Below are positions 2,728 to 63,188 of a DNA stretch of 64,000 nucleotides, piece after piece. The notes under the pieces were generated by a model. The model ran no database searches and had not been told where the DNA came from. It saw only the letters and a list, made by a program, of their open reading frames with translations. The translations under genes were made by a program, and so were the position numbers. The stretch comes from Gammaproteobacteria bacterium (GTDB lineage: Bacteria > Pseudomonadota > Gammaproteobacteria > GCA-001735895). The stretch lies in contig JBNLGQ010000112.1 of assembly GCA_050306135.1 (NCBI GenBank), forward strand, positions 67,794 through 131,793, written 5' to 3'. Every line of letters begins with the position of its first letter. Positions within the stretch are counted from its first letter, which is position 1.

Positions 2728-5313
2728 TTACTGGTTAGATTCAAGAAAGTCCTGAGCAAAACGCTGCAATACACCACCTGCTTCATATACCCGGACTTCT
2801 TCAGCAGTATCCAGACGACAGGTCACTGGAATTTCTACACGCTCACCATTAGCTCGATTCATAACTACCGTCAATTTGGTACGCGCTGTGATTTCACCAA
2901 TCACGTCATAGGTTTCGGTACCATCGATGTTATAGGTATGGCGATTTTCACCCGCCATGAATTCCAGCGGTAGGACGCCCATACCGACTAGATTGGTTCT
3001 ATGAATGCGCTCAAAACCTTCGGCAACAATGGCTTCAACGCCTGCCAGACGAACACCTTTTGCCGCCCAGTCACGTGATGAGCCCTGACCATAGTCAGCA
3101 CCTGCAACGATTATCAAAGGCTGCTTACGCTGCATATAGGTTTCAATCGCTTCCCACATACGTGTGACCTTGCCTTCGGGTTCTATGCGTGCCAGTGAGC
3201 CCTGCTTCACTTCACCATTTTCCTGCACCATTTCATTCAATAGTTTGGGGTTAGCAAAGGTCGCACGTTGCGCGGTCAGATGATCACCACGATGGGTTGC
3301 ATAGGAATTAAAATCGACTTCGGGTAATCCCATTTTGGCGAGGTATTCGCCGGCTGCACTGCTGGCCAGGATCGCGTTGGATGGTGACAGATGGTCGGTA
3401 GTGATGTTGTCACCCAGTACCGCCAGTGGTCGCATGCCCTTCATGGTGCGTTCGCCTGCCAGTGCACCTTCCCAGTAAGGAGGGCGACGGATATAGGTGG
3501 TTTGCGGACGCCAGTCATACAGTGGACTGCTGGCTTCTTCCACTTGGCCCAGGTCGAACATTGGATCGTAGATCTGGTGGAATTGCTCTGGCTTTACGCA
3601 GCTACTGACAATCGCATCGATCTCTTCATCGCTGGGCCAGATATCTTTTAAGGTGATCGGTTTACCGGCTTTATCAGTGCCAAGAACATCCTGTTCGATA
3701 TCAAAGCGCACGGTACCCGCGATGGCATAAGCGACCACCAGTGGTGGCGAGGCGAGGAACGCCTGCTTGGCGTATGGGTGGATACGACCGTCGAAGTTAC
3801 GGTTACCGGAAAGCACCGCTGTTGCATACAGATCACGCTCGATGATTTCCTGTTGAATCTTTGGATCGAGTGCGCCACTCATGCCGTTACAGGTGGTGCA
3901 GGCGTAGCCGACAATACCAAAGCCGAGCTTTTCCATTTCGGACAGCAGACCTGCTTCTTGCAGATACAGTTTGGCAACTTTAGAGCCGGGGGCAAAGGAA
4001 GATTTAACCCAGGGTTTACGTATCAGACCAAGCTCATTCGCTTTACGCGCAACCAGTCCAGCAGCAACGACGTTACGCGGATTACTGGTATTGGTACAAC
4101 TGGTGATGGCGGCAATAATCACCGCACCATCCGGTAATTCACCTTCTTTTTCTTCCCATTTACCTGCAATGCCACGAGATTCAAGATCAGCGGTTGGTAG
4201 ACGACGGTGCGGGTTGGAAGGTCCCGCCATATTACGGCATACAGAAGATAGATCGAATTCCAGTACACGCTCGTATTCAACGTTTGCCAGATCATCCGCC
4301 CACAGGCCGGTGAGTTTGGCGTACTGCTCAACCAGTGCAACCTGCTCCGGTTCACGGCCAGTGAGTTTCAGATAATCGATGGTTTGCTGGTCGATATAGA
4401 ACAGACCTGCTGATGCGCCAAATTCAGGCGTCATATTAGAGATGGTCGCGCGATCACCAATGGTCAGATTAGCGGCACCTTCGCCAAAGAACTCCAGATA
4501 GGATGAAACGACCTTCTCATTACGCAGAAACTCGGTGATTGCCAGTACGATATCGGTGGCGGTGATGCCAGGCTGGCGCTTACCAACCAGCTTGACACCG
4601 ATGATGTCGGGCAGGCGCATCATAGAGGGACGGCCCAGCATGACGGTTTCTGCTTCCAGACCACCAACGCCAATTGCGATAACGCCCAGTGCATCAATAT
4701 GCGGGGTATGGCTGTCAGTACCTACACAGGTATCGGGGTAGGCGACGCCATCACGCGCCTGGATAACGGGCGACATCTTTTCCAGATTGATCTGGTGCAT
4801 GATGCCATTACCGGCAGGAATCACGTCGACATTCTTGAATGCGGTTTTGGTCCATTCGATAAAATGGAAGCGATCATCGTTACGGCGATCTTCAATTTCA
4901 CGATTTTTGTCGAACGCGTCTGGATCAAATCCACCAAACTCAACCGCCAGCGAATGATCCACAATCAACTGAGTAGGTACGACAGGGTTGACTTCGGCTG
5001 GGTCGCCACCCATATCGGCAATCGCATCACGCAGACCAGCCAGATCTACCAGCGCAGTTTGACCCAGAATGTCATGACATACCACACGCGCTGGATACCA
5101 GGGAAAATCCAGATCCTGTTTGCGTTCGATAAGCTGTTTCAGTGAGTCAGTAAGTGCGTCAGGATCACAACGGCGCACCAGTTGTTCGGCCAGTACACGA
5201 GAGGTATAGGGGAGTTTTGCATAGGCACCAGGCTGTATAGCCTCGACAGCCTCACGTGTATCAAAGTAATCAAGCGCTGTGCCAGCCAAAGGCTTGCGAT
5301 ATAGTGTATTCAT
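2728..5313 (-). CDS. acnD: Fe/S-dependent 2-methylisocitrate dehydratase AcnD (aconitase family)
   Basis: 861 aa. N-terminus MNTLYRKPLAGTALDYFDTREAVEAI matches the AcnD family. Aconitase Cys ligands are present. The start codon overlaps the regulator stop (TAATG). Confidence 0.9.
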   Translation of the reverse strand: MNTLYRKPLAGTALDYFDTREAVEAIQPGAYAKLPYTSRVLAEQLVRRCDPDALTDSLKQLIERKQDLDFPWYPARVVCHDILGQTALVDLAGLRDAIADMGGDPAEVNPVVPTQLIVDHSLAVEFGGFDPDAFDKNREIEDRRNDDRFHFIEWTKTAFKNVDVIPAGNGIMHQINLEKMSPVIQARDGVAYPDTCVGTDSHTPHIDALGVIAIGVGGLEAETVMLGRPSMMRLPDIIGVKLVGKRQPGITATDIVLAITEFLRNEKVVSSYLEFFGEGAANLTIGDRATISNMTPEFGASAGLFYIDQQTIDYLKLTGREPEQVALVEQYAKLTGLWADDLANVEYERVLEFDLSSVCRNMAGPSNPHRRLPTADLESRGIAGKWEEKEGELPDGAVIIAAITSCTNTSNPRNVVAAGLVARKANELGLIRKPWVKSSFAPGSKVAKLYLQEAGLLSEMEKLGFGIVGYACTTCNGMSGALDPKIQQEIIERDLYATAVLSGNRNFDGRIHPYAKQAFLASPPLVVAYAIAGTVRFDIEQDVLGTDKAGKPITLKDIWPSDEEIDAIVSSCVKPEQFHQIYDPMFDLGQVEEASSPLYDWRPQTTYIRRPPYWEGALAGERTMKGMRPLAVLGDNITTDHLSPSNAILASSAAGEYLAKMGLPEVDFNSYATHRGDHLTAQRATFANPKLLNEMVQENGEVKQGSLARIEPEGKVTRMWEAIETYMQRKQPLIIVAGADYGQGSSRDWAAKGVRLAGVEAIVAEGFERIHRTNLVGMGVLPLEFMAGENRHTYNIDGTETYDVIGEITARTKLTVVMNRANGERVEIPVTCRLDTAEEVRVYEAGGVLQRFAQDFLESNQ

Positions 5314-6029
5314 TATTTTACTCTCTTGAAGGCGTTTATATGGTTAAGTAATTTGGGTTGCAGGTTTTTCTGGGTATATTGAATGTGTCGCCGCATCAGC
5401 ATCTCAGCCAGCTCGGCATCACGGTTAGCGATCGCCTGTACAATATGCCTGTGCTCGTCAAAAGCCGTAGTGACACGAGGACCGGCCATGCCAAGTTGCA
5501 CTCGATACATGCGAATCAGGTGATAGATGCCATTCATCAATTCAGAGATCAGATGCTGGTTCTTACTACCCAGTATGATGCGGTAATGAAAGTCCACATC
5601 ACCGGCTTCCTGGTAGTAGGTTTCCCCTCCTTTCACGGTCTGAAAATGCGTATTTAACAGGGCTTGCAGGTCTTCAATTTCCTGATCGGTCATATTGCTT
5701 GCCGCAAGTCGAGCCGCCATACCTTCCAGAGCCTCACGAACCTGATACAGACCGGTAAGGCCTTCAGCGGTAAGTGCAACCACACGTGCACCCACATTAG
5801 CCTTGCGCTCGACCAGATGACAGGTTTCCAGTCGGTTGATCGATTCGCGTATCACTGCACGGCTGACCGCGTATTTTGTCGACAAATCGGTTTCACTAAG
5901 CTTCGAACCGGAAACGATAGCACCCTCAACAATATCTGACCGAAGCTGGATAAAGGTTTTATCTGCAACAGTTACAGGTTGTTCGTTGAAAAGCAAAACA
6001 GAGGTCATATTGAGTTTTCCGGGCTCCAA
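5313..6029 (-). CDS. GntR-family transcriptional regulator (FadR/FCD-type), likely regulator of acnD-prpF
   Basis: N-terminal winged-HTH GntR signature (LSETDLSTKYAVSRAVIRESINRLE) with an FCD-like C-terminal domain. Translationally coupled to acnD. Confidence 0.75.
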   Translation of the reverse strand: MEPGKLNMTSVLLFNEQPVTVADKTFIQLRSDIVEGAIVSGSKLSETDLSTKYAVSRAVIRESINRLETCHLVERKANVGARVVALTAEGLTGLYQVREALEGMAARLAASNMTDQEIEDLQALLNTHFQTVKGGETYYQEAGDVDFHYRIILGSKNQHLISELMNGIYHLIRMYRVQLGMAGPRVTTAFDEHRHIVQAIANRDAELAEMLMRRHIQYTQKNLQPKLLNHINAFKRVK

Positions 6030-6158
6030 TTGTCGACAATATAAGCAATATTTAACTAAATATCCACCATTGTTAGGCTATATTGTCGACAAAAGTTAAG
6101 TATGAATACTTATATATAGAGAACTTTTTGCGTTTATTGACACATTTTAAAAGATATT

Positions 6159-6293
6159 AACCACAGAGGGCACAGAGAACACGGAGAATGATGAGTTTGG
6201 TTATCTATCGCTACTTATCATTTTGATAAATCGAATCGATGCAGTTCCAAAAAAACCTGAATACCTCTGTGCTCTCCGTGTCCTCTGTGGTTA
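6159..6293. repeat. palindromic CACRGAG nonamer-array repeat, copy 2
   Basis: Arms aaccacagag-ggcacagag-aacacggag and cctctgtgc-tctccgtgt-cctctgtgg enclose a loop of about 75 bp. Lies in the divergent promoter region between the GntR gene and the GNAT gene. Confidence 0.8.
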
Positions 6294-6334
6294 AACTCTT
6301 TTAACGATGGAAAAATGTTCGAGCAAAAAAGCCT

Positions 6335-6796
6335 ATGAAAATTATTGAAGCCGATTATAAAAGTCTGGCAAAGGTAACGGATTTATTCCGTGAATATCAG
6401 CAATTCATCGGTGTAGATCTGTGTTTTCAGGGCTTTGAAGAAGAACTGGCCGGTCTACCGGGCAAGTATGCGCCACCAGCAGGAGCTATTTTTATTGCCA
6501 TTGATAACGGAGAATTGATTGGTTGTGTGGCGATACAACCCATCGATCAGCAACTGGCAGAGTTAAAGCGACTTTATGTCCGACCAGCCTGGCATGGTCA
6601 GGGGATTGGGAAGCAGTTGTTTGAATGTGCAATGGCGCGGGCGCAATCGATTGGGTATGGCAGTATTGTGCTGGATACGCTGGAATCGATGCGCAGTGCG
6701 CGGAAGTTGTATCTGGGGTATGGATTTAGGGAGATAGAGAGTTATTATCATAATCCGGATCCGACGACTAAGTTTTATCGGTATGATTTTGGGTAA
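6335..6796 (+). CDS. GNAT family N-acetyltransferase
   Basis: 153 aa. Acetyl-CoA binding motif RPAWHGQGIGKQL (R/Q-x-x-G-x-G/A). Confidence 0.75.
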   Translation: MKIIEADYKSLAKVTDLFREYQQFIGVDLCFQGFEEELAGLPGKYAPPAGAIFIAIDNGELIGCVAIQPIDQQLAELKRLYVRPAWHGQGIGKQLFECAMARAQSIGYGSIVLDTLESMRSARKLYLGYGFREIESYYHNPDPTTKFYRYDFG

Positions 6797-6837
6797 TCGT
6801 ATTTTTGTTCATTATTGGTAGTAGTAACTTCCTGGAC

Positions 6838-7880
6838 AGTTGTTTCACACGCCTTAGCTTTTCTTGCTTCGTAGTGTCTAACGAGTAGGCGTGCGAGTGG
6901 CTTTCTTTTGCGCGAAAAGAAAGTCACCAAAGAAAGCGCGCCCCTCAATCCCTTGATTATTCCGGGCTTCCTGCCCTCCACCCTTCGGGCCACACTGTGT
7001 GCGTTCAAAAATGTTCCTGACATTTTTGTCGTCAAAATGGCGCGGGCTTGAAAGGGGAGTTACTGCAGTCTGCTAACATAGTTACTATTTAATTTACTAT
7101 TGTGGTTTAAAGAGATATGGAAATAATTGATATTAGAGAAGCTGTATTAACTGATGTAGATGATTTACAGGAACTTTATGCTCATGTGGATCAAATACAT
7201 CATGACGAATATCCCGAAATATTTAAACCATCAATTAACATCAATAGACCTGCCTCATTTTTTGAAGGAATCTTTTCTGATGACAATATAAAGTTTCTTG
7301 TAGCATGTATTGATAATCAAATTATCGGTTTTATTCATGCGGAATTAAAAAAGGCAAATCACCCTGTGTTACAAGATTACTCTTATGGGCACATATCAGA
7401 TATTGTTATTAGGCCAGATCACAAAAGAACAGGAGTAGGAAGTAAGCTTTTTAAATCAATTGAGAAGTGGTTTAAAGAAAATGAAGTTAAAGAAATAAGC
7501 CTTACCGTATTTAGTTTTATTGAAGAGGCTATAGCTTTTTATAAAAAAACAGGCTTTACCAATAGACATTGTACAATGACTAAAAATGTCGAAGTCTTTT
7601 AACGCCCTTATTGAGTGCCGATTGTGAGTCATTTTGCAGGGTCAGCGCACACGGACGTCCGCTGAGGATCGTTGAGCAGGAGCGAATCTGTTCGTGGCGT
7701 TATTGCCAGGGATGGCGGAAGTGCTGGGAATGCAGGAGCAATTCCCAGTGAAAAGGAGCTCGCACGCCTGTTAGAAAGACACTACGAAGCAAGAAAAGCT
7801 AAGGCGTGTGAAACAACAATCCGGTAAGGTGCAAGCGTAAATAAGATCGCCGCGCTAACGCTCGCGATGACAGGAAAAAA
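6838..7880. repeat. composite repeat element E1 with terminal inverted repeats of about 60 bp (GTTTCACACGC...GCGTGTGAAAC) carrying a GNAT cargo gene
   Basis: The left TIR (6842-6903) is the reverse complement of the right TIR (7750-7812) at about 57 of 62 positions. Internal conserved blocks P (6838-7062) and Q (7606-7812) match element E2 at 40766-41520. The GNAT gene sits where E2 has a 150 bp AT-rich spacer. Confidence 0.75.
7117..7602 (+). CDS. GNAT family N-acetyltransferase (cargo of repeat element E1, low GC)
   Basis: 161 aa. Motif RPDHKRTGVGSKLF. AT-rich relative to the flanking sequence. Confidence 0.7.
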   Translation: MEIIDIREAVLTDVDDLQELYAHVDQIHHDEYPEIFKPSININRPASFFEGIFSDDNIKFLVACIDNQIIGFIHAELKKANHPVLQDYSYGHISDIVIRPDHKRTGVGSKLFKSIEKWFKENEVKEISLTVFSFIEEAIAFYKKTGFTNRHCTMTKNVEVF

Positions 7881-7886
7881 ACAAAA

Positions 7887-8040
7887 ATGCTACTCAACTA
7901 CATAGAACCCGTATTCCGCCCCCCAGTAAGGCTAAATCAATCATTCTACAAGTAACAAACGGTGCTCCTGGAACTAATGTAAATTCTGCGATATGTATAG
8001 CGATGAAAAAAATGCTTCGTCCAAAATCTATAGCGAACTA
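7887..8040 (+). pseudogene. frameshifted 5' remnant of the radical SAM gene (degenerate duplicate of 10335-10490)
   Basis: The first 34 nt are identical to the start of the 10335 gene (atgctactcaactacatagaacccgtattccgcc). Then about 75% identity with a 1-nt deletion, giving MLLNYIEPVFRPPVRLNQSFYK*. The upstream 70 bp is also duplicated (7813-7886 versus 10236-10334). Confidence 0.7.
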
Positions 8041-9374
8041 AAGATATTCCCAGATAGTTTTAATAATAAATCCTTATCAGGCATATTTTTTAGTGTATTA
8101 ACAATTAGAGCATAATTACTTGATTGAATAAGTACTGATTTTTCCTTAGATACATATCTCAAATTTGATGTCTTGTCATGAGTATTTGTAGTGGTTTCGG
8201 TTGTAAATTTAGTCTTCCAACTTTGTGCTATTTTTGAAATAAAGTCTCTACTTTTATCCTCATCACCCATATCTAATAAGAGAATAAAGAAAGAATAATC
8301 ATCAAAGTCATAATAATTTTCATCAGAGAGATTGAAAAGCTTAAGTGTCAGTGACTGATAATATGGTGGCGATTTTTTTGGATAAGTCACTTTTATACCA
8401 GTTAATGATTTTATAGCTGCTAACACCCTTGGCGGTGAATATACATCATAATGATATATATATTCTTCATCCGAAAATTCATTTTTCAGGGTCGATAGTC
8501 CAACCATCATCTGATCTGCAGTTTTAAACGTGTTGTTAACAAGGTCTTTATTCTCAGGATATAAGATAAGCATTGCAGAGTTAGATAACTCAGATAATCT
8601 ACGCGGCATAGGATCAATTCCTTGAGACTTTTTATATTTTTCTGCAATATATTTTTTTCCTAGATGATATTTAAATCGCAGTTCCTGTTTATATAACTTA
8701 GATAATTTTTTCTTAGACGTACTTTCATTATCGTTTTTTTCAGGCTTTTGTTTTGATCCTTTATCTAGAATTTCATAGCCTTCTTCACAGCCATATTCTT
8801 TACATAGCTTTTCAGTGAGATATTCAGAATTTCCTTCTAGTAGCGCGCTGAGTAATTCACTTTGACCAGGTCGATAAATGTCATCATTCATGTTGGCTGG
8901 AAATTTTTCAAAATCAGCTGCATGAACAAATTCATGAATAAATAAAGCCTCGTAAATTTGTTTAGCGACATCAGGATCTTTTAAATCATAAGAATATGCA
9001 ATTTCTAGTTCTTCAGGATTAATAAAAATTGTTTTTATATTATCTTTATACTTACCAAGAACATTTTCCGATGAAGCAGCTGAGGAAGCATCGGATAAAA
9101 GCCGTGCATAAAATGGATGATTAATCATCATTTTATATTCATCATACGCATCTTTATAGGTAAGACGTTTTAGCCGGTATTTATCGGCCAGCTCCCATCG
9201 CACATGGCTAAGATCAACTTGAAGTTCTTTTTCTACAGCATTTCTAGATAATTCGGCTGTAACCCTAAGATTTACCTTGTGTTGATATACACTTTTGAAA
9301 TCGTGAGTAGCACAAGAAGTAATTAGAAATGAAGTTAAGAATAAGATAACCCCACTAGCTTTTCTGATCTTCAT
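8028..9374 (-). CDS. lipoprotein with HExxH zinc-metallopeptidase-like motif (unknown family)
   Basis: 448 aa. Signal peptide plus lipobox (LITSC). HEFVH motif followed downstream by Glu (LLEGNSEY). K/E-rich, low-GC gene that overlaps its upstream partner by 20 nt. Confidence 0.55.
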   Translation of the reverse strand: MKIRKASGVILFLTSFLITSCATHDFKSVYQHKVNLRVTAELSRNAVEKELQVDLSHVRWELADKYRLKRLTYKDAYDEYKMMINHPFYARLLSDASSAASSENVLGKYKDNIKTIFINPEELEIAYSYDLKDPDVAKQIYEALFIHEFVHAADFEKFPANMNDDIYRPGQSELLSALLEGNSEYLTEKLCKEYGCEEGYEILDKGSKQKPEKNDNESTSKKKLSKLYKQELRFKYHLGKKYIAEKYKKSQGIDPMPRRLSELSNSAMLILYPENKDLVNNTFKTADQMMVGLSTLKNEFSDEEYIYHYDVYSPPRVLAAIKSLTGIKVTYPKKSPPYYQSLTLKLFNLSDENYYDFDDYSFFILLLDMGDEDKSRDFISKIAQSWKTKFTTETTTNTHDKTSNLRYVSKEKSVLIQSSNYALIVNTLKNMPDKDLLLKLSGNIFSSL

Positions 9375-10020
9375 TTATGTTCTTTAATTCTTCAAGGTGA
9401 GGGTTGATTGAAATCTTACCTGCTTTGATATCCCCAATAAAACCATTCAGAACAACGTCAGATAACGAGCTAGAGTCATAATTGCATAGATAACCAGTAA
9501 TTTTTGCATCTCCTTTCACATCGAATATTGATGCACCTCCAGAAACATAGTCATAAGATAGGCCAGTAAAATCTCGATATCTTCGAAAGTAGTGGCAATT
9601 GGCATCTTCCAAAGTAAATGGAACAATGGAAATATATTCTACTTTTTTAGGCATTTTATTAATAACTTTAGTTATAATTTTTTCTTTTCCTGTTGATAAA
9701 ACCCTATCTTCAAAAGATTCTTGAATTAAATCTTCAACCGTTGATTCGTTAAGAAATATATAATTATCTAAAAGGTAGGTATAGGAAACAAAGAAATCGA
9801 TGGTTCTTTTTTTATTTATCCAACGGGATGACTCGTAATAATACTGATTCTGTTTTACCTGTTTATAACCATTTACAAATTTTAAATCCAGACTATTTTT
9901 AGGTATAGATACTACTAGAGTAGTTGGTTCTTTTAGTTGACCCTCTAGTGGTACGGTTTGACATGATGCCTGTAAAATTATTGAGATTATTAAAATCAAC
10001 GAAGAAAGGGCTTTTAGCAT
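9355..10020 (-). CDS. lipoprotein of unknown function (first gene of the low-GC two-gene islet)
   Basis: 221 aa. Signal peptide plus lipobox (LQASC). No recognisable domain. Preceded by a 280 bp AT-rich leader. Confidence 0.5.
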   Translation of the reverse strand: MLKALSSLILIISIILQASCQTVPLEGQLKEPTTLVVSIPKNSLDLKFVNGYKQVKQNQYYYESSRWINKKRTIDFFVSYTYLLDNYIFLNESTVEDLIQESFEDRVLSTGKEKIITKVINKMPKKVEYISIVPFTLEDANCHYFRRYRDFTGLSYDYVSGGASIFDVKGDAKITGYLCNYDSSSLSDVVLNGFIGDIKAGKISINPHLEELKNINEDQKS

Positions 10021-10334
10021 AATATTTTGATTTATGTACTACAAAAGGGTCGCTATATTACTAAAGGCAACACTTATATATAATGAGCAATAAACGATTA
10101 TAATTGTAGGGTTCTTCCTACATAAACTAGAAATGAAGTAAGTTCCTATGTATAACAATTGATAAAAATACAAAATAAATCATTTCTAGATACAGAATAA
10201 TGTAGATTAATCGATCCAAATGTTTAAATATTCAGAAATACATCAGCAATCCGGTAAGGTGTAAACCTAAATAAAATCACCGCGCAAAGTTAATACCTTT
10301 GGGTATTTGCGATGACAGGTATAACAAAATATAT

Positions 10335-11222
10335 ATGCTACTCAACTACATAGAACCCGTATTCCGCCCTCCCAGTGAGGCTGAATCACTCATCCTGCAG
10401 GTAACAAACGGTTGCTCCTGGAACCAGTGCACCTTCTGCGATATGTACACCGATGAGCAGAAAAAATTCCGCCCAAAATCCATCGAAAACATCCGCAAGG
10501 AACTCGCTTATGTTGCATCATCAAACTACCCTCTGCGACGGGTATTCCTCGCTGACGGCGATGCAATGACCTTATCATTCCGTCGTCTGCTGGAAATTAT
10601 GCAGGCGATCAATGAATACCTGCCAGATATACAGCGTGTGTCTGCCTATTGCCTGCCCCGTAATATCAAAAATAAAACGATCGATGAATTAACGCAATTA
10701 CGCGAGCTGGGTCTGAGTCTGGTTTATGTGGGCTGCGAGACCGGTGATGATTTAATCCTGGAGAAAATCAGTAAGGGTGAAACCTGGCAAAGCTCACTTG
10801 ATGCTTTATTGAAGCTGGGTGAAGCAGGTATCAAACGCTCAGTCATGATTCTTAATGGTCTGGGAGGTACCCGATATACTGAACAGCATGCCCTGAATTC
10901 AGCGAGTTTGATGAATGAATCTCAACCAGAATATCTGGCTACTCTGGTGGTCACTTTTTATAAAGGGCCAGAGCGATTCCAACAGGGCTTTGGCGGTGAG
11001 TTTACAGCTCTCAATCAGCTGCAACTGGCAAAAGAAATGAAAATGTTGATAGAGTCCTTGTCGCTGGATAAGACCATATTCCGCAGCGATCATGCATCTA
11101 ATTATCTGATCCTTAAGGGTGTATTAAATAAAGACAGGGATAAACTCCTGGGCTTACTGGATAAGGCAATTAATCAACCGGGTTCCGTACCACTTAGACC
11201 GGAATGGCAAAGAGGTCTCTAA
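10335..11222 (+). CDS. radical SAM protein with noncanonical CX4CX2C cluster motif
   Basis: From the DNA: GTA ACA AAC GGT TGC TCC TGG AAC CAG TGC ACC TTC TGC translates to VTNGCSWNQCTFC. A glycine-rich SAM motif follows downstream. ATG start at 10335; the track's start at 10299 is a TTG. Confidence 0.65.
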   Translation: MLLNYIEPVFRPPSEAESLILQVTNGCSWNQCTFCDMYTDEQKKFRPKSIENIRKELAYVASSNYPLRRVFLADGDAMTLSFRRLLEIMQAINEYLPDIQRVSAYCLPRNIKNKTIDELTQLRELGLSLVYVGCETGDDLILEKISKGETWQSSLDALLKLGEAGIKRSVMILNGLGGTRYTEQHALNSASLMNESQPEYLATLVVTFYKGPERFQQGFGGEFTALNQLQLAKEMKMLIESLSLDKTIFRSDHASNYLILKGVLNKDRDKLLGLLDKAINQPGSVPLRPEWQRGL

Positions 11223-39472: not shown

Positions 39473-39590
39473 CTCACCACAGAGTACACAGAGATCACAG
39501 AGGTTAAAACGTCCATCTTTTAGTTTCAGAAGATTTCTAAAGTATCAAAACATGTTGATAATCAGTTTAAATTCTCCTCTCTGTGGTGAG
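39473..39590. repeat. palindromic CACRGAG nonamer-array repeat, copy 3
   Basis: ctcaccacagag-tacacagag-atcacagagg, a 70 bp loop, then cctctctgtggtgag. Lies between the convergent Rieske and qor genes. Confidence 0.75.
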
Positions 39591-39642: not shown

Positions 39643-40617
39643 TTAAACTGTCAAAACCGTACAGCCACTGGTTTGTCTTCCTTCCAGTGCACGATGTGCA
39701 GCAGCACAATCAGACAGGGCAAAGGTTTGATTCACATGAATCTTGACCTCACCACTGGCAACCACGCTCATCAAACGATTGGCGCCTTCCAGAAATAATT
39801 CCTTGGTCGCTATATGTGTTGCCAGGGTAGGACGTGTGACATACAGCGAACCCCTGGGAGCCAGAATGCCAGGATTAAAGGCTTCTACCGGACCGCTTGC
39901 ATTACCATAGGTCGCCAGAACACCAAAAGGCCGCAGGGAATCCAGTGAAGCCTCAAAAGTCGCCTGGCCTATAGAGTCATAAGCCACCGCAACGCCCTCG
40001 CCATTGGTGATTTCGGCTACACGGCTTGGGATATCTTCATCACGATACATGATAATATGGTCACAGCCATTGGCCCGAGCAAGGTCGGCCTTATCTTTGG
40101 AACCAACGCAGCCGATCACGGTGGCGCCCAGTAATTTCGCCCACTGGCAAAGGATTAATCCAACCCCGCCTGCGGCAGCGTACATCAGGATGGTATCACC
40201 CGGTTTAACGGGATAGGTTCTGAACAATAGATAATGTGCAGTCAGCCCTTTCAGCATCATGGCTGCAGCAGTCTGATCGTCAATATTTTCTGGAACCTTG
40301 CATAGCTTTTCCGCATCAATTAGACGTTCTTCGGCGTAAGCACCGAGGCACATTGGATAGGCCACTCTATCGCCAACTTTAAATGAATTTACGCCGTCAC
40401 CGAGCTCAGTAATGATCCCTACTGCTTCCATACCCAGTATGGCGGGCATTTCGCCTACTGAGTAGAGGCCAGTTCTACCGTAAACATCGATGTAGTTAAG
40501 GCCACAGGCTGTTTGTTTGAGTTTTACCTGGCCCGGGGCAGGTTGACCTACTTCGATATCTTCCCATTTTAGGACTTCGGTACCGCCAGTTTTGTGGATT
40601 CGGATGGCTTTAGTCAT
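39643..40617 (-). CDS. qor: NADPH:quinone oxidoreductase (MDR/zeta-crystallin family)
   Basis: 324 aa. GAAGGVG nucleotide-binding motif. N-terminus similar to Qor. Confidence 0.8.
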   Translation of the reverse strand: MTKAIRIHKTGGTEVLKWEDIEVGQPAPGQVKLKQTACGLNYIDVYGRTGLYSVGEMPAILGMEAVGIITELGDGVNSFKVGDRVAYPMCLGAYAEERLIDAEKLCKVPENIDDQTAAAMMLKGLTAHYLLFRTYPVKPGDTILMYAAAGGVGLILCQWAKLLGATVIGCVGSKDKADLARANGCDHIIMYRDEDIPSRVAEITNGEGVAVAYDSIGQATFEASLDSLRPFGVLATYGNASGPVEAFNPGILAPRGSLYVTRPTLATHIATKELFLEGANRLMSVVASGEVKIHVNQTFALSDCAAAHRALEGRQTSGCTVLTV

Positions 40618-40765
40618 GGTGGCTCTCCTCTTTTTGAGGAAGATAATTTAACCTTTTTTTGTTTTGTGTGCTTTGGTTTTTTGAAGAGGGTGTAGCTTAA
40701 ATTTGATAGTGTCATTGTGAAGGTAGTAAAACTACCTTTTAACAATAGCTAATTCCCGGATAATG

Positions 40766-41520
40766 GTTTCACACGCAATGCTTTCCTTACTCCGTAGCCA
40801 ATGACGAGTACGCGTGCTAGTGGCTTTCTTTTGCGCGAAAAGAAAGTCACCAAAGAAAGCGCGCCCCTCAATCCCTTCATCGTCAAAATGGCATCCAGAG
40901 CGCGGTCGGCTCAGACGCGGGTCCAACCGCGCTGAGCCTCAAATGACATCCTTGTCATTTGACCCCACTCTGAATGCCATTTTGCCGCGGGCTTGAAAGG
41001 GGGATATAAAGGAACTTCTTATCTCCGTTAACATAAAAGTATGTCATAACTCTATCTAATCAATAATAAAGAATATCCAAAGAAATGGTTAATAAATGGC
41101 CAATAGCAAATGTATAACACGTTATTTTTTACTGCCAGTTAACCATAGCGCTTTCCCATTGCCCTTATTGAGTGCCGATTGTGAGTCATTTTGTAGGGTC
41201 AGCGCACACGGACGTGCGCTGAGGACAGTCGAGCATGGATGCGAGTCTGGCCGTGGCGTTATTGCCAGGGATGTCATGTATGCAGAAAATGCAGGAGCAA
41301 TTTTCTGTTCAAAATGGCTTAATTTTCGGGAAGCCGCTGGCCACTCAATTGGGATGTCCTTTTTTTCGTCTCTTTTTGTGGACAAGCAAAAGAAAGCCAC
41401 TCGCACGCGTACCCGTCATTGGCTACGGAGTAAGGAAAGCATTGCGTGTGAAACAGTAATCCGGTCAGTTGCTAACCTTTTAAAGATTGCAGCGATAAAG
41501 CTCGCAATGACATTATCGAC
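40766..41520. repeat. composite repeat element E2 with terminal inverted repeats of about 62 bp, no cargo
   Basis: The TIRs at 40766-40827 and 41395-41456 are reverse complements, with 2 mismatches. Internal P and Q blocks are homologous to E1 (ggctttcttttgcgcgaaaagaaagtcaccaaagaaagcgcgcccctcaatccctt, and cccttattgagtgccgattgtgagtcattttg-agggtcagcgcacacggacgt). The flanking R block aatccggt-ag-tg also matches. Confidence 0.75.
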
Positions 41521-41539: not shown

Positions 41540-42247
41540 TCACTCCACCAACTCAATAATTATCCGCCTATTCTGCTTCCCCTTCTTCTCAATCTTCTTA
41601 ACCCTGACCGCCCCAATCTCATTTGAATTCGCAACATGCGTCCCACCACAAGGCTGCAAATCCACTCCCTCAAAATTAACCAGTCTCACCTTACCATGCC
41701 CCATCGGGGGCTTAACACTCATGGTGCGAATCAACTCTGGTTGCGCTTCCATTTCTGCATCACTGATCCATTGCATAGTCATCGGATGATCTGCTGTGGT
41801 GATATCATTCAGGGCCTGCTCAATCGCCAGCTTGTCCGGCGGCTCAGGTAAATCAAAATCCAGCCGTGCAGTGCCGTCATCACGGATGCTGCCGCCAGTC
41901 ACCGGCTCGGGTATCACAGCACATAACATATGCATACAACTATGTAATCGCATAATCTGATAGCGTCGATCCCAGTCTATGCTTAGTGTCAGCTGTTCGC
42001 CTATCTCGGGCAGGTTATCGCCTTCAACCTGATGTAATATCTCAGCACTTTCTCTATCCTTGATGGTATTGATGATTTTTATTTCCGAGTGATCAGGACG
42101 CAGCATAATTCCACTGTCTCCTGGCTGTCCACCGCCTACTGGGTAGAATACGGTTTGGTCAACGATAATATGGCCATCCTGAATGCCAGTTACCTTTGAT
42201 GTACATTGTTTGAGATAACCATCTTCTCGAAATAATTCTAGAGTCAT
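41540..42247 (-). CDS. AlaX-like alanyl-tRNA editing protein (tRNA synthetase second additional domain, SAD)
   Basis: 235 aa. HSCMHMLC...CGGTH zinc-binding editing-domain motifs (HxxxH...CxxxH). Confidence 0.7.
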   Translation of the reverse strand: MTLELFREDGYLKQCTSKVTGIQDGHIIVDQTVFYPVGGGQPGDSGIMLRPDHSEIKIINTIKDRESAEILHQVEGDNLPEIGEQLTLSIDWDRRYQIMRLHSCMHMLCAVIPEPVTGGSIRDDGTARLDFDLPEPPDKLAIEQALNDITTADHPMTMQWISDAEMEAQPELIRTMSVKPPMGHGKVRLVNFEGVDLQPCGGTHVANSNEIGAVRVKKIEKKGKQNRRIIIELVE

Positions 42248-57005: not shown

Positions 57006-60490
<3,485 letters not shown>

Positions 60491-60510
60491 AAAGCTTGTA
60501 TAAGATTTAA

Positions 60511-61611
60511 CTACAGGCGCATGGGCATCACTACATATCTAAATTGATTAGAGTCTGGAGTGGTAATTACACAGCTACTGTTGGAATCTTTCAATTTAAT
60601 CAAAACCTGTTCTGAATCCAGTACCGATAATACATCGAGTAAGTAGGTCACATTGAACCCAATTTCCAGGGTCGATTCATCAAAATCTACGGTTATCTCT
60701 TCTTCTGCTTCTTCTCGATCAGGGTTATTAGCCTGAATTGAAAGATTATTTTCTCCAAGCGTTAAACGAATCCCTCTATATTTTTCATTCGATAAAATTG
60801 AGATCCTGTGTAATGACTGCTTTAACAGATCCCTGTTTACACTCAGGGTTTTATTTCCATCTAGCGGTATAACCCTGTTGTAATCAGGAAATTTTCCATC
60901 GATCAATTTTGAAGTAAAAGTAAACTGTTTTGTTTCTACACGGATATGATTATTACTGATTTTAACTTCTGCAATTTCGTCCGTGTTGGACAGTAATCTG
61001 GCTAACTCAAGAATTCCCTTGCGAGGAATAATGATCTGCTCCTCTGTGGTTATATTATTTTCACTTTCATATTCACTTAAAGCAAGCCTGTGCCCATCAG
61101 TGGCAACAAGACGCAAAAAGTCTTTACTGAGTTCCATCAATAAGCCATTCAGATAATACCGAACATCCTGCTGTGCCATTGCAAAAGCTGTTTTATCTAT
61201 TAACAGCTTGAGATTCTTTTGTGGAATCTCAAAGGTGAGTTTAGCTTCGATATCTTCAGTACCCGGAAAATCCTTTCCAGGCAGAGAGGATAGGATAAAA
61301 CGAGATCTCGCCGAAGTAAGCGTGACCTGATTATCTTCTATATTAAACTTGATTTCGCTTTTATCAGGTAGCGCTTTACAGATATCGAGTAGTTTTCTGG
61401 CCGGCAATGTGGTGAGAATATCTTCATTAATCGGAATATCCAGATGAGTTATTAATTCTATCTCAAGATCGGTAGCCGTAAGGGAAAGATTCCCATTGTT
61501 GGATTGAAATAAAACATTCCCCAAAATAGGTAAGGTTTGTTTACGTTCTACCGCTCCTATCACCTGTTGAAGAGGATTGAGCAAGTCTTCTCTATTAATA
61601 ACAATATTCAT
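60511..61611 (-). CDS. dnaN: DNA polymerase III beta sliding clamp
   Basis: 366 aa three-domain clamp. N-terminus and length are typical. Confidence 0.95.
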   Translation of the reverse strand: MNIVINREDLLNPLQQVIGAVERKQTLPILGNVLFQSNNGNLSLTATDLEIELITHLDIPINEDILTTLPARKLLDICKALPDKSEIKFNIEDNQVTLTSARSRFILSSLPGKDFPGTEDIEAKLTFEIPQKNLKLLIDKTAFAMAQQDVRYYLNGLLMELSKDFLRLVATDGHRLALSEYESENNITTEEQIIIPRKGILELARLLSNTDEIAEVKISNNHIRVETKQFTFTSKLIDGKFPDYNRVIPLDGNKTLSVNRDLLKQSLHRISILSNEKYRGIRLTLGENNLSIQANNPDREEAEEEITVDFDESTLEIGFNVTYLLDVLSVLDSEQVLIKLKDSNSSCVITTPDSNQFRYVVMPMRL

Positions 61612-61847
61612 TATATATATTATCTGTTGTTGTTATTAGCATCTGCCAAAAAAATAGTAAGTCAAAATTATCTTTAAAATTCAATGAGTTATTTTAAAAA
61701 TAGGCTTTCGGTTGTTGTGACTATATTATCAGTAAACTGTGGATAACATAGGGATAAACTTACCGCAAATTTTTATTAAATACTTATCCACAAGCTGCAC
61801 ACAGGCTTATGCATTTTATGCTATTTGTCTTCATGTGCAACATCCCA
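61612..61847. promoter_or_regulatory. dnaA-dnaN intergenic region with two perfect inverted DnaA boxes and an AT-rich tract (oriC-like or dnaN control region)
   Basis: TGTGGATAA at 61738-61746 and TTATCCACA at 61784-61792, plus a weaker gggataaac. About 120 bp of 75% AT sequence at 61612-61735. Confidence 0.5.
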
Positions 61848-63188
61848 TTAATTACTCAGGGTTAGATAAAGATTTTCGTAATCTTCGCTAAACCTTTGAT
61901 CCTGTTGTTTTAATTCCTCTACCTTACGGCAGGCATGTAGCACTGTCGTATGATCCCTTCCCCCAAAAGCAGCACCAATCTCAGGCAAGCTGTGTCGAGT
62001 CAGCAATTTTGATAAAGACATGGCTATCTGACGAGGTCGGGTGATAGAACGGGTTCGTCTGTTGGATAACAGATCAGAAACATTGATTTTGAAATAATCA
62101 GCGACTGTTTTCTGAATATTGATCATGGAAACATTTCGTTCCTGTACTGCCAACAGGTCTTTTAGCGCTAACTTGGTGAATTCCTGAGTGATTGCTTCAC
62201 CTGTAAAACGTGCATGAGCAATTACCCTTTTCAAAGAACCTTCCAGTTCACGAATATTCGATTTGAATTTATTAGCGATGAAGAATGCCACTTCTTCTGG
62301 TAATACGACATTCGCGGATTCTGCCTTGGTGTGCAATATGGCAACACGGGTTTCCAGATCCGGTGGTTTAATATCAACGGCAAGTCCCCAGCCAAGTCTT
62401 GAGCGGATGCGATCGTCTAGTCCATCGATCTCTTTTGGAAAACGATCGCAGGTAATAATCATCTGAGATTTAGCTTCGTAGAGAGAATTGAAGGTATGGA
62501 AAAATTCTTCCTGTGAGCGGTTCTTATCCGCCAGGAACTGAATATCATCAATCAGTAAGGCATCCACATTGCGATAAAAGTTCTTGAATTCGTTGATTTT
62601 GCTATGTTGCAGGGCCTTAACCATATCTGAAACAAAGCGTTCACAATTTACATAAACGACATTGCTATCCGGTTTTAGGCGTCGAATCTGGTTTCCAGCA
62701 GCCTGCATTAAATGAGTTTTGCCAAGACCTACTCCGCCATAAATATACAGCGGATTATAATCAGCACCCGGATGATTACTTACCTGGATGGAAGCAGCCC
62801 TGGCCAGCTGATTTGATTTACCCTCAACATAGTTTTCAAACGTTTGAGATACATCCAGACCACTGGGATAGCTATTGGTAAGCGTTTCAGCTGAATTATG
62901 CTTTACCTGGGGTTGAGCAGATGGTGCAGAACTGGCAGATCGGGTTTGACTGCCAATGCCAATGGTCACATCCATGGATTTACTGTCATCCAGTTGCAGT
63001 ACAATATTTCGAATTTGATCCAGAAAATTTTTCTTCACCCAGTCCATCACGAAACGATTGGGAGCCAATAAACATAACTGATTGTCTTTAAGCTCTGTTT
63101 GCAGCGGGAGAATCCAGGTATTGAATTGCTGTTCACTCAGTTCGCCTTCCAGATAGGAAAGGCACTGCTCCCATAACTCGAGTTTCAA
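61848..63188 (-). CDS. dnaA: chromosomal replication initiator DnaA
   Basis: AAA+ Walker A GGVGLGKTHL. C-terminal DNA-binding domain with DnaA signature. Confidence 0.97.
   Translation of the reverse strand: MKLELWEQCLSYLEGELSEQQFNTWILPLQTELKDNQLCLLAPNRFVMDWVKKNFLDQIRNIVLQLDDSKSMDVTIGIGSQTRSASSAPSAQPQVKHNSAETLTNSYPSGLDVSQTFENYVEGKSNQLARAASIQVSNHPGADYNPLYIYGGVGLGKTHLMQAAGNQIRRLKPDSNVVYVNCERFVSDMVKALQHSKINEFKNFYRNVDALLIDDIQFLADKNRSQEEFFHTFNSLYEAKSQMIITCDRFPKEIDGLDDRIRSRLGWGLAVDIKPPDLETRVAILHTKAESANVVLPEEVAFFIANKFKSNIRELEGSLKRVIAHARFTGEAITQEFTKLALKDLLAVQERNVSMINIQKTVADYFKINVSDLLSNRRTRSITRPRQIAMSLSKLLTRHSLPEIGAAFGGRDHTTVLHACRKVEELKQQDQRFSEDYENLYLTLSN

Follow-up and report, generated by a model that had tools for sequence, protein, structure and literature searches.

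A modular repeat family with long inverted arms and a fixed internal slot, probably of foldback type, in uncultured marine gammaproteobacteria

Two copies of a composite repeat element, E1 (~6820-7874) and E2 (~40710-41512), lie in the 64-kb stretch of DNA analysed here (the window), which is part of the metagenome-assembled genome (MAG) contig JBNLES010000051.1 (Gammaproteobacteria bacterium). We suggest, at a probability only a little above even (about 0.55), that E1 and E2 are members of a family of non-autonomous foldback repeats, restricted to one lineage and similar to REPINs, miniature inverted-repeat transposable elements (MITEs) and mobile insertion cassettes (MICs) but much larger and modular, with arms that are alike by subtype and through arm-to-arm recombination and a slot for foreign genes. 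The family is found only in a few uncultured marine gammaproteobacteria. A first-pass annotation of the window had recognised two composite repeats with long inverted arms and had suggested that they could be a foldback-type, cargo-carrying, MITE-like element; a repeat search and E1-E2 alignments agree with the anatomy, and we keep the description as the best overall label.

Anatomy of the two copies in the window

The repeat search finds inverted arms of 77 nt in E1 (6828-6904 / 7752-7828, 84% complementary) and of 89 nt in E2 (40746-40834 / 41386-41474, 90% complementary), with the arm tips GTTTCACACGC / GCGTGTGAAAC at 6842 and 7804 in E1 and at 40766 and 41444 in E2. Arms are 60-150 nt long and stand 550-850 nt apart. 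As had been proposed, E1 and E2 share internal blocks, three of which align directly at 77-93% identity: a left block (6857-6957 vs 40780-40880, 89%), a first right block (7604-7678 vs 41161-41235, 93%) and a second right block (7682-7754 vs 41241-41313, 77%). Also common to both is a CTTTCTTTTGCGCGAAAAGAAAG hairpin, at 6901-6923 in E1 and 40824-40846 in E2.

The left half of the element consists, in order, of a hairpin like those of repetitive extragenic palindromes (REP-like hairpin), an outer arm, an inner arm starting GTTTCACACGC, the P block, an optional N module and the M module, a ~100-nt hairpin with the 3' end GGGCTTGAAAGGGG. The right half, inverted relative to the left, runs from the Q block, which starts GCCCTTATTGAGTGCC and contains three hairpins, through the inner arm and the outer arm to a REP-like hairpin. 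P includes a 58-nt stretch without any difference between E1 and E2 and is 94-100% identical in L010, L013 and L025 (contigs and loci from other assemblies are given by our labels, L003 to L036), and N occurs in both orientations in L009 and within the P block in L014. The ends of the repeat had at first been set too far inward: the inverted repeat goes ~22 nt beyond GTTTCAC, as the outer-arm consensus TAGCAACTnnCCGGATnAnn drawn from an alignment of 13 arm ends, and is followed by the REP-like hairpin TGTCATYGCGAGC..GCRATC. Assemblies from NCBI, JGI, ENA and Logan show these structures independently of one another, which rules out an assembly artefact; short-read assemblies break within arms and blocks (L003, L005, L016, L017). 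The parts of E1 and E2 in the window are as follows.

6820-6841, plus strand: E1 outer left arm (AGTAGTAACTTCCTGGACAGTT), which matches the consensus TAGCAACTnnCCGGATnAnn only weakly (arm-end alignment; the inverted repeat reaches 6828)
6842-6896, plus strand: E1 inner left arm, starting GTTTCACACGC; its first 38 nt are the reverse complement of the right arm
6889-6957, plus strand: E1 P block with hairpin 6901-6923 (E1-E2 alignment)
6962-7029, plus strand: E1 N module, a small hairpin unit found in either orientation in other copies
7030-7060, plus strand: E1 M hairpin remnant with its interior deleted, whose end GGGCTTGAAAGGGG at 7044-7057 is the left edge of the slot (alignment)
7061-7603, plus strand: E1 slot, with a GNAT open reading frame (ORF) at 7117-7602 (161 aa) and its upstream region (Pfam, GC content, L014 counterpart)
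7604-7754, plus strand: E1 Q block, whose start GCCCTTATTGAGTGCC is the right edge of the slot; hairpins 7643-7664 (loop ACGGAC) and 7724-7748 (loop GCAGGAGCA) (alignment)
7757-7814, plus strand: E1 inner right arm, ending GCGTGTGAAAC (repeat search, arm alignment)
7815-7842, plus strand: E1 outer right arm (AACAATCCGGTAAGGTGC...), with further copies at 10244 and 41455
7843-7874, plus strand: REP-like hairpin beside E1 (GATCGCCGCGCTAACGCTCGCGATGACAGG), the same motif as the inverted doublet in L010, 1889-1952
10244-10330, plus strand: solo outer arm and REP-like hairpin without inner arm, upstream of an intact radical SAM gene (repeat search)
40710-40743, plus strand: REP remnant (TGTCATTGTGAAGG...) outside the E2 left arm (sequence comparison)
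40744-40765, plus strand: E2 outer left arm (AATAGCTAATTCCCGGATAATG) (repeat search, arm-end alignment)
40766-40834, plus strand: E2 inner left arm (identity of 96% with its partner arm, 95% with the L025 left arm)
40812-40880, plus strand: E2 P block with hairpin 40824-40846 (alignment)
40881-41003, plus strand: E2 M module, a ~100-nt hairpin with GGGCTTGAAAGGGG at 40989-41002 (fold: 44 predicted pairs, 9 with changes on both sides)
41004-41160, plus strand: E2 slot, 157 nt of AT-rich non-coding DNA (alignment)
41161-41385, plus strand: E2 Q block; 41164-41176 pairs with 41339-41349; hairpins 41200-41221 (loop ACGGAC), 41223-41252 (loop AUGGAU) and 41283-41307 (loop GCAGGAGCA) (fold, alignment)
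41386-41454, plus strand: E2 inner right arm (repeat search, arm matrix)
41455-41485, plus strand: E2 outer right arm (AGTAATCCGGTCAGTTGCTAACC...) (arm-end alignment)
41486-41512, plus strand: REP-like hairpin beside E2 (ATTGCAGCGATAAAGCTCGCAATGACA), whose counterpart by position in L025 is 5490-5519

The GCGCG loop of the P hairpin of E1 could possibly pair with a CGCGC downstream of it.

The slot and its contents

The slot is bounded on its left by ...GGGCTTGAAAGGG and on its right by GCCCTTATTGAG..., and these edges fall at identical nucleotides in E1, E2, L010, L025, L009 and L014 around unrelated contents. E1 and L014 hold a GNAT gene in the same slot, E2 the 157 nt of AT-rich DNA, L010 and L025 terminator-like hairpins, and L009 three ORFs without a family match; a HATPase/DUF4325 gene in opposite orientation stands in L009 beside a separate right half. 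The earlier proposal of a cargo slot is thus borne out in the form of a variable slot at a fixed position, with the GNAT ORF of E1 exactly where E2 has its 157 nt. The GNAT product matches Pfam Acetyltransf_1 (E = 9e-18), and the gene has a GC content of 31-33% compared with 42.7% for the window. PADLOC gave no defence-system match for the slot genes.

One assembly holds the GNAT slot content as a separate contig (L008 / L005, the 671-nt NODE_239) with a coverage of 2.1, compared with ~12 for neighbouring contigs of the same bin, so this passenger may be present in only part of that sample's population. Another observation concerns the DNA that follows M: the same terminator-like hairpin (AAGASYATTCGAGC-ARA-GCTCGAATRSTCT) occurs there at L009 4900-4935 and L025 5790-5825. 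As it stands in two species behind different upstream genes, it is a module of the family and not a native terminator.

Copies in related genomes

Exact 18-21-mers were used to look for further copies, which have various slot contents and come from the species of the window as well as from related genomes; with an exact 18-mer taken from Q, copies were obtained only from MAGs of the same project. Within the species there are at least four loci, namely E1, E2, a truncated copy at a third locus (L010, thiolase / GIY-YIG) and a fragment in L006. The related genomes with copies are L009 (duplicated as L007), where another species has an island of 5 kb with a single left half but three right halves; L013, with a left half only; L014, the E1 locus of a related strain; L025, whose compact element separates AlaX from the radical SAM gene; and L032, with a decayed element from which P is missing. 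Q is largely deleted in L025, L010 and L014, and insertions interrupt P in L009 and L014. The orientation of E1 does not vary between L014 and the five assemblies in which E1 is present.

L025 and L032 were reached through orthologues of the flanking genes, which also led to relatives in which no element is present (L027, L029, L030, L034 and L036). The position occupied by the element between AlaX and the radical SAM gene in L025 has only a truncated remnant of REP and of the X block (see below) in L027, and no element lies upstream of the quinone oxidoreductase gene ADH in relatives L029 and L030. L013 and L014 were found by a protein-database search with a spurious ORF running across arm and P, which added only these two contigs; the peptide was rejected as a real gene because its frame is not conserved between E1 and E2. 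No match was obtained by blastn of E2 against plasmids and phages, by a viral-contig scan with a 19-mer from Q, by a search of plasmids with 54 nt of an arm at E up to 10, or by a scan of JGI metagenomes with a 20-mer from Q. Four contigs returned by a metagenome scan with a 21-mer from P share only 23 nt and were taken as chance matches.

Several observations on these contigs touch the hairpins around the element. The X block, a REP-like hairpin into which 40 nt are inserted that include CUACAGGGAUGUAG, itself a hairpin whose loop contains GGA, occurs in tandem and inverted copies outside the arms (L009 454-545, 5361-5415 and 5444-5495; L014 1154-1208) and as a truncated copy in the otherwise element-free L027 (3725-3765). 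L010 has a tail-to-tail doublet of REP-like hairpins (ATTGCCGCGCTATCGCTCGCAATGACA / TGTCATCGCGAGCGTTAGCGCGGCGATC) at 1889-1952, just downstream of a small GIY-YIG nuclease gene (1984-2358, Pfam E = 2e-16). When contig L004 (3,984 nt) is compared with window 4760-8742, all 73 differences fall in its first 390 and last 230 nt and the middle is identical, which suggests chimeric contig ends or strain recombination tracts.

Likeness of the arms

The arms had been described as near-perfect over ~60 bp. This holds for E2: in an identity matrix of 15 inner arms its two arms agree at 96%, and they match the left arm of L025 at 95%. It does not hold for E1, where 38 identical nt are followed by an indel and rearrangement. 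The right arm of E1 is 95% identical to arms in L009 and L013 and only 91% to the left arm of E1, and arm subtypes are common to several genomes. The middle of the arms does differ between E1 and E2, as had been claimed, but is still about two-thirds identical after a 1-nt indel; over the whole inner arms the two copies are 68-75% identical.

Folding of the joined arms as DNA, one of the checks proposed with the first-pass annotation, gives -72 kcal/mol for the cognate arms of E1 and -94 for those of E2, compared with only -51 and -33 kcal/mol for swapped E1/E2 arms. Folded as RNA, E2 is far more stable than shuffled sequences (z = -17 on the plus and -26 on the minus strand), and the structure is thus not a matter of chance. 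The joined-arm DNA fold reaches -43 kcal/mol in L025 and -17 in L032. Against arm pairing as a rule of the family, the arm pair of L025 is 75% identical, that of L009 67% or less, and the right arm of L032 is decayed. Complementarity is therefore not kept across the further copies, which is the outcome named beforehand as refuting selection for pairing.

The differences between arms had been read as compensatory and as the result of selection or gene conversion. Shared subtypes and the mismatched arms of L025, L009 and L032 weaken the first of these, and the co-variation of the arms is no strong argument that pairing is selected. Conversion or recombination between the arms is still plausible for E1, E2 and L014, in each of which change within the copy is concerted: E1 has its 38 identical nt, E2 its 96% identity and L014 the same ~45-nt deletion in both arms. 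Concerted change of this kind suggests that the arms converted each other or were recently copied in inverted form. REPINs have been described as commonly carrying compensatory changes across their hairpin (PMC3116915).

Genomic context and rearrangement

The window holds ordinary chromosomal genes and ends with gyrB, recF, dnaN and dnaA (57006-63188, minus strand); it therefore adjoins the replication origin, and the rearranged segment of ~30 kb discussed here is origin-proximal. Its radical SAM protein is 74-76% identical to Candidatus Thiodiazotropha homologues and 80-91% to closer relatives. E1 is flanked by a first GNAT gene (6335-6796) and the radical SAM gene, and E2 by ADH (39643-40617) and an AlaX-type gene (41540-42247). 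As had been noted of transposases, the 64-kb window contains none, and no integrase either.

The interior of E2 is flipped relative to its AlaX flank when compared with L025. L025 1-5614 aligns with window 46969-41386 on the minus strand (the AlaX flank and the adjacent arm), L025 5543-5782 aligns with window 40763-41002 on the plus strand (arm, P and M), and the two alignments overlap exactly on the arm. Interiors of insertion sequences (IS) inverted by recombination between their terminal inverted repeats (TIRs) have been described (PMC3004938).

Elements or REP remnants are also located at the junctions where gene order differs between relatives. AlaX is next to the radical SAM gene, and the 83aa gene next to ADH, in L025, L027/L029 and L030; 83aa adjoins the radical SAM gene in L032, and AlaX adjoins ADH in the window. 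One simple inversion is insufficient to account for E1 and E2, which are in direct orientation, and the neighbour of ADH in relatives is the OAD operon and not the first GNAT gene. At least two rearrangements are needed between the window and the order of L027, and we therefore do not claim one specific event.

A direct repeat of 193 nt (~85% identical) at 7814-8006 and 10244-10456, made up of outer arm, REP and ~120 nt from the start of the radical SAM gene, surrounds a block at 8007-10243; 7888-8006 is a decayed 5' fragment of that gene. The block is of low GC content (28-35%) and has two minus-strand ORFs (8028-9374 and 9355-10020), both of which are found in L027 between AlaX and the radical SAM gene. 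This arrangement fits the integration of a circular piece through one crossover within the shared segment. Another repeat family, unrelated to the first and rich in CACAGAG / CTCTGTG heptamers, is present at 2637-2731, 6147-6304 (including a 40-nt inverted pair, 6147-6186 / 6265-6304), 39473-39504, 42036-42081 and 61040-61065, with copies also in L030 and L031.

Origin of the family and alternative explanations

We propose that spread and reshuffling of the family take place at the DNA level. Mobilisation would probably come from an enzyme encoded elsewhere that recognises the hairpins or ends, as in REPINs and MITEs, and homologous recombination between copies would add to the reshuffling. 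Arm likeness would come from the same subtype standing at both ends together with conversion or recombination of inverted arms less than 1 kb apart; recombination of this kind could also flip interiors and, between copies, invert large chromosomal segments. The GNAT gene would be a foreign, low-GC passenger in the slot, making E1 similar to a mobile insertion cassette.

A number of observations weigh against this proposal. No cognate transposase, RAYT or autonomous relative was found and there is no plasmid, phage or viral similarity; for this reason we infer mobility rather than observe it. The ends of the element are not clearly defined, with the inverted repeat fading outward into REP-like hairpins, and candidate boundaries show no target-site duplication or direct repeat, the flanks of all 13 arm ends continuing as inverted repeat. 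Sampling is thin, at ~10 copies from one small clade recovered by exact-match searches. At an apparently orthologous site, arm, P and M are 95.8% identical over 240 nt between the window and L025, compared with 54-75% at third codon positions of PhaC, SDR, AlaX and the radical SAM gene. Purifying selection on a functional sequence would explain this conservation of the left half no less well than selfish spread, and perhaps better, and pairing kept through double changes at every hairpin scale would also be expected from selection at the RNA level. The conservation could be due to selection acting on an RNA or on a DNA-binding site, but also to concerted evolution or to a recent exchange of the family between co-occurring relatives; the absence of P from L032, the loss of most of Q in three copies and the occurrence of modules in either orientation argue against a strict functional requirement.

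The foldback family has to be weighed first against a static mosaic like those of bacterial interspersed mosaic elements (BIMEs), in which REP, arms, P, N, M and Q are independent repeats around resident genes, the arms arose by local inverted duplication and the GNAT gene is itself a resident. Modules are indeed independent and variable in order and orientation, REP-like hairpins occur without an element (the L010 doublet, L030, L027), and an outer arm with REP stands alone at 10244-10330. However, unrelated loci (E1, E2, L010, L025) repeat the order arm-P-M-slot-Q-arm with the same sharp boundaries, the GNAT gene and other slot contents are compositionally foreign, and the element is far more conserved than its surroundings. 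We consider a static mosaic unlikely.

The conservation and folding of the element could otherwise reflect a selected structured RNA, with the arms as a terminal stem (for example a stalk processed by RNase III) and P-M and/or Q as RNA domains, cis-acting in a 3' untranslated region or as a small RNA. Nine of the 44 pairs of the M hairpin keep pairing through double changes, and hairpin H3 co-varies between E1 (CUGGGAAU/AUUCCCAG) and E2 (CAGAAAAU/AUUUUCUG). To these can be added the excess of left-half conservation over flanking third codon positions, an upstream gene that is co-directional with the left half in five of six copies, and a terminator-like hairpin after M in three copies. The GGA-containing loops of Q might conceivably bind a CsrA-type protein. 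In a search of E2 alone against Rfam at E up to 10, TwoAYGGAY (RF01731) gave a weak match (29.2 bits against a gathering score of 43, E = 0.03); it was rejected as below threshold and with loops that are not conserved, the second loop in E1 and L009 being GCAGGAGC and the first in L009 being AUAGAU. The whole window has no Rfam family at gathering thresholds and no tRNA or tmRNA, and promoter and terminator scans of E1 and E2 gave no more signals than shuffles. The losses and splitting of P and Q and the decayed arms of some copies also count against a selected RNA, and the occurrence of N and M in either orientation would be odd for a strand-specific molecule. An RNA function as the main explanation appears rather improbable to us.

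A platform for gene capture independent of integrons can also be envisaged, with folded arms and a P/M/Q scaffold (single-stranded DNA or a cruciform) presenting GGGCTTGAAAGGG and GCCCTTATTGAG to a recombinase that would exchange unrelated DNA between them; we offer this as a long shot.

Still less probable is an inverton, in which a recombinase encoded elsewhere would flip the interior to switch slot or flanking genes. Inverted repeats around a segment of 550-850 nt, the opposite orientation of the E2 and L025 interiors relative to the AlaX flank, and the tendency of recombination in the arms to keep them alike would all agree with it. However, the difference in orientation was seen between species, with no evidence of one within a population, and comes with larger rearrangements, E1 is in a single orientation in the five assemblies and in L014, the window has no recombinase gene, and arms are decayed in some copies. 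Arms of 60-150 nt are, moreover, much longer than known inverton repeats.

Resemblance of the terminal motifs to integron attC sites had also been suggested, with the arms as a folded site for an IntI-type integrase and the slot as its insertion point. Slot contents (GNAT, ORFs without family match) are of the kind found in cassette arrays, and the arms of E1 and E2 conserve structure more than sequence. A regular-expression scan of both strands of E1, E2 and their flanks found no RYYYAAC...GTTRRRY pair 40-160 nt apart; GTCTAAC / GTTAGAA occur in E1 only, 860 nt apart, and E2 has CAATGAC / GTCATTG. The geometry is also wrong, with arms that enclose an ORF at 550-850 nt from each other, compared with a site of 57-141 nt directly downstream of the ORF in attC, and downstream of the GNAT gene in L014 there is only GGCGTGTGAAAC and the outer arm, with no hairpin site. 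The integrase that was sought is absent from the window, and the sole intI observed is a pseudogene near the copy in L013, facing the element and not diverging from it. The element is not an integron attC site, and this explanation is largely refuted.

The L013 pseudogene (3553-3779, minus strand) is a truncated 70-residue integron-integrase N-terminus (NCBIfam NF011946, E = 4e-16; Pfam PF13495, E = 9e-19) ~270 nt outside the left arm, reading towards the element, with diverging small ORFs without family match on its other side; it looks like a disrupted integron, and its position near the arm speaks for the integron explanation.

If the foldback family is correctly identified, it would be a previously undescribed transposase-less repeat family with unusually long inverted arms, an interior of nested hairpin modules and a single slot, fixed in position and sharply delimited, in which some copies have foreign genes. 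It would mark repeated change points of gene order near the replication origin in close relatives of the sulfur-oxidising symbiont genus Candidatus Thiodiazotropha, and so serve as a practical marker, and be a probable cause, of genome rearrangement in these uncultured bacteria. The left half, as conserved between species as second codon positions, could reveal an RNA or protein-binding-site function, and the origin of the sharp slot edges a new recombination mechanism.

Comparison with known systems

With integron attC sites the element shares a folded imperfect palindrome whose pairing is kept better than its sequence, and an association with accessory low-GC genes; it differs in having no core sites, another geometry and no integrase. 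BIMEs are mosaics of REP-type palindromes and short motifs in variable combinations, intergenic and often placed after co-directional genes, which resembles what we see here. To our knowledge, however, they have no long matched terminal arms, slot or internal genes, and are far less conserved between species.

REPINs are REP doublets that form hairpins and are mobilised by RAYT transposases, and the element resembles them in several respects. Inverted REP-like hairpins TGTCATYGCGAGC..GCRATC flank the two arms of L025 and of L009 on the outside, and E2 has a complete one on its right and a remnant on its left; the whole element folds into a long hairpin with compensatory changes, and it is non-coding, intergenic, multi-copy and vertically persistent. 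However, a REPIN is ~100 nt long with a short spacer, while the REPs of the element are 0.4-5 kb apart around modules and a slot able to hold genes, its arms measure 60-150 nt, the window has no RAYT gene, and the REP doublet of L010 adjoins a GIY-YIG gene and not a RAYT.

Like MITEs, the element has terminal inverted repeats, no transposase, several copies and presence or absence between relatives, and E2, at ~770 bp, lies within the MITE limit of ~800 bp, is multi-copy and has no credible ORF; E1 is the exception in carrying a gene. In the concept of a mobile insertion cassette, IS-type inverted ends enclose passenger genes and no transposase is present (PMC5444012, PMC4337579); the passenger gene between the ends of E1, the GNAT gene in L014 and the other ORFs in L009 are reminiscent of it, with ends that may be of IS type. 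Unlike MITEs and MICs, the element shows no target-site duplication, and plasmid, phage and viral searches found no cognate IS. Its arms are much longer than usual TIRs and fade outward, and its interior is made of conserved hairpin modules with the passenger at one fixed, sharply bounded position. The flipped interior of E2 relative to L025 is similar to that of IS inverted by TIR-TIR recombination in Wolbachia (PMC3004938); those IS are autonomous and have short TIRs, whereas the element described here is without a transposase and has arms long enough for homologous recombination.

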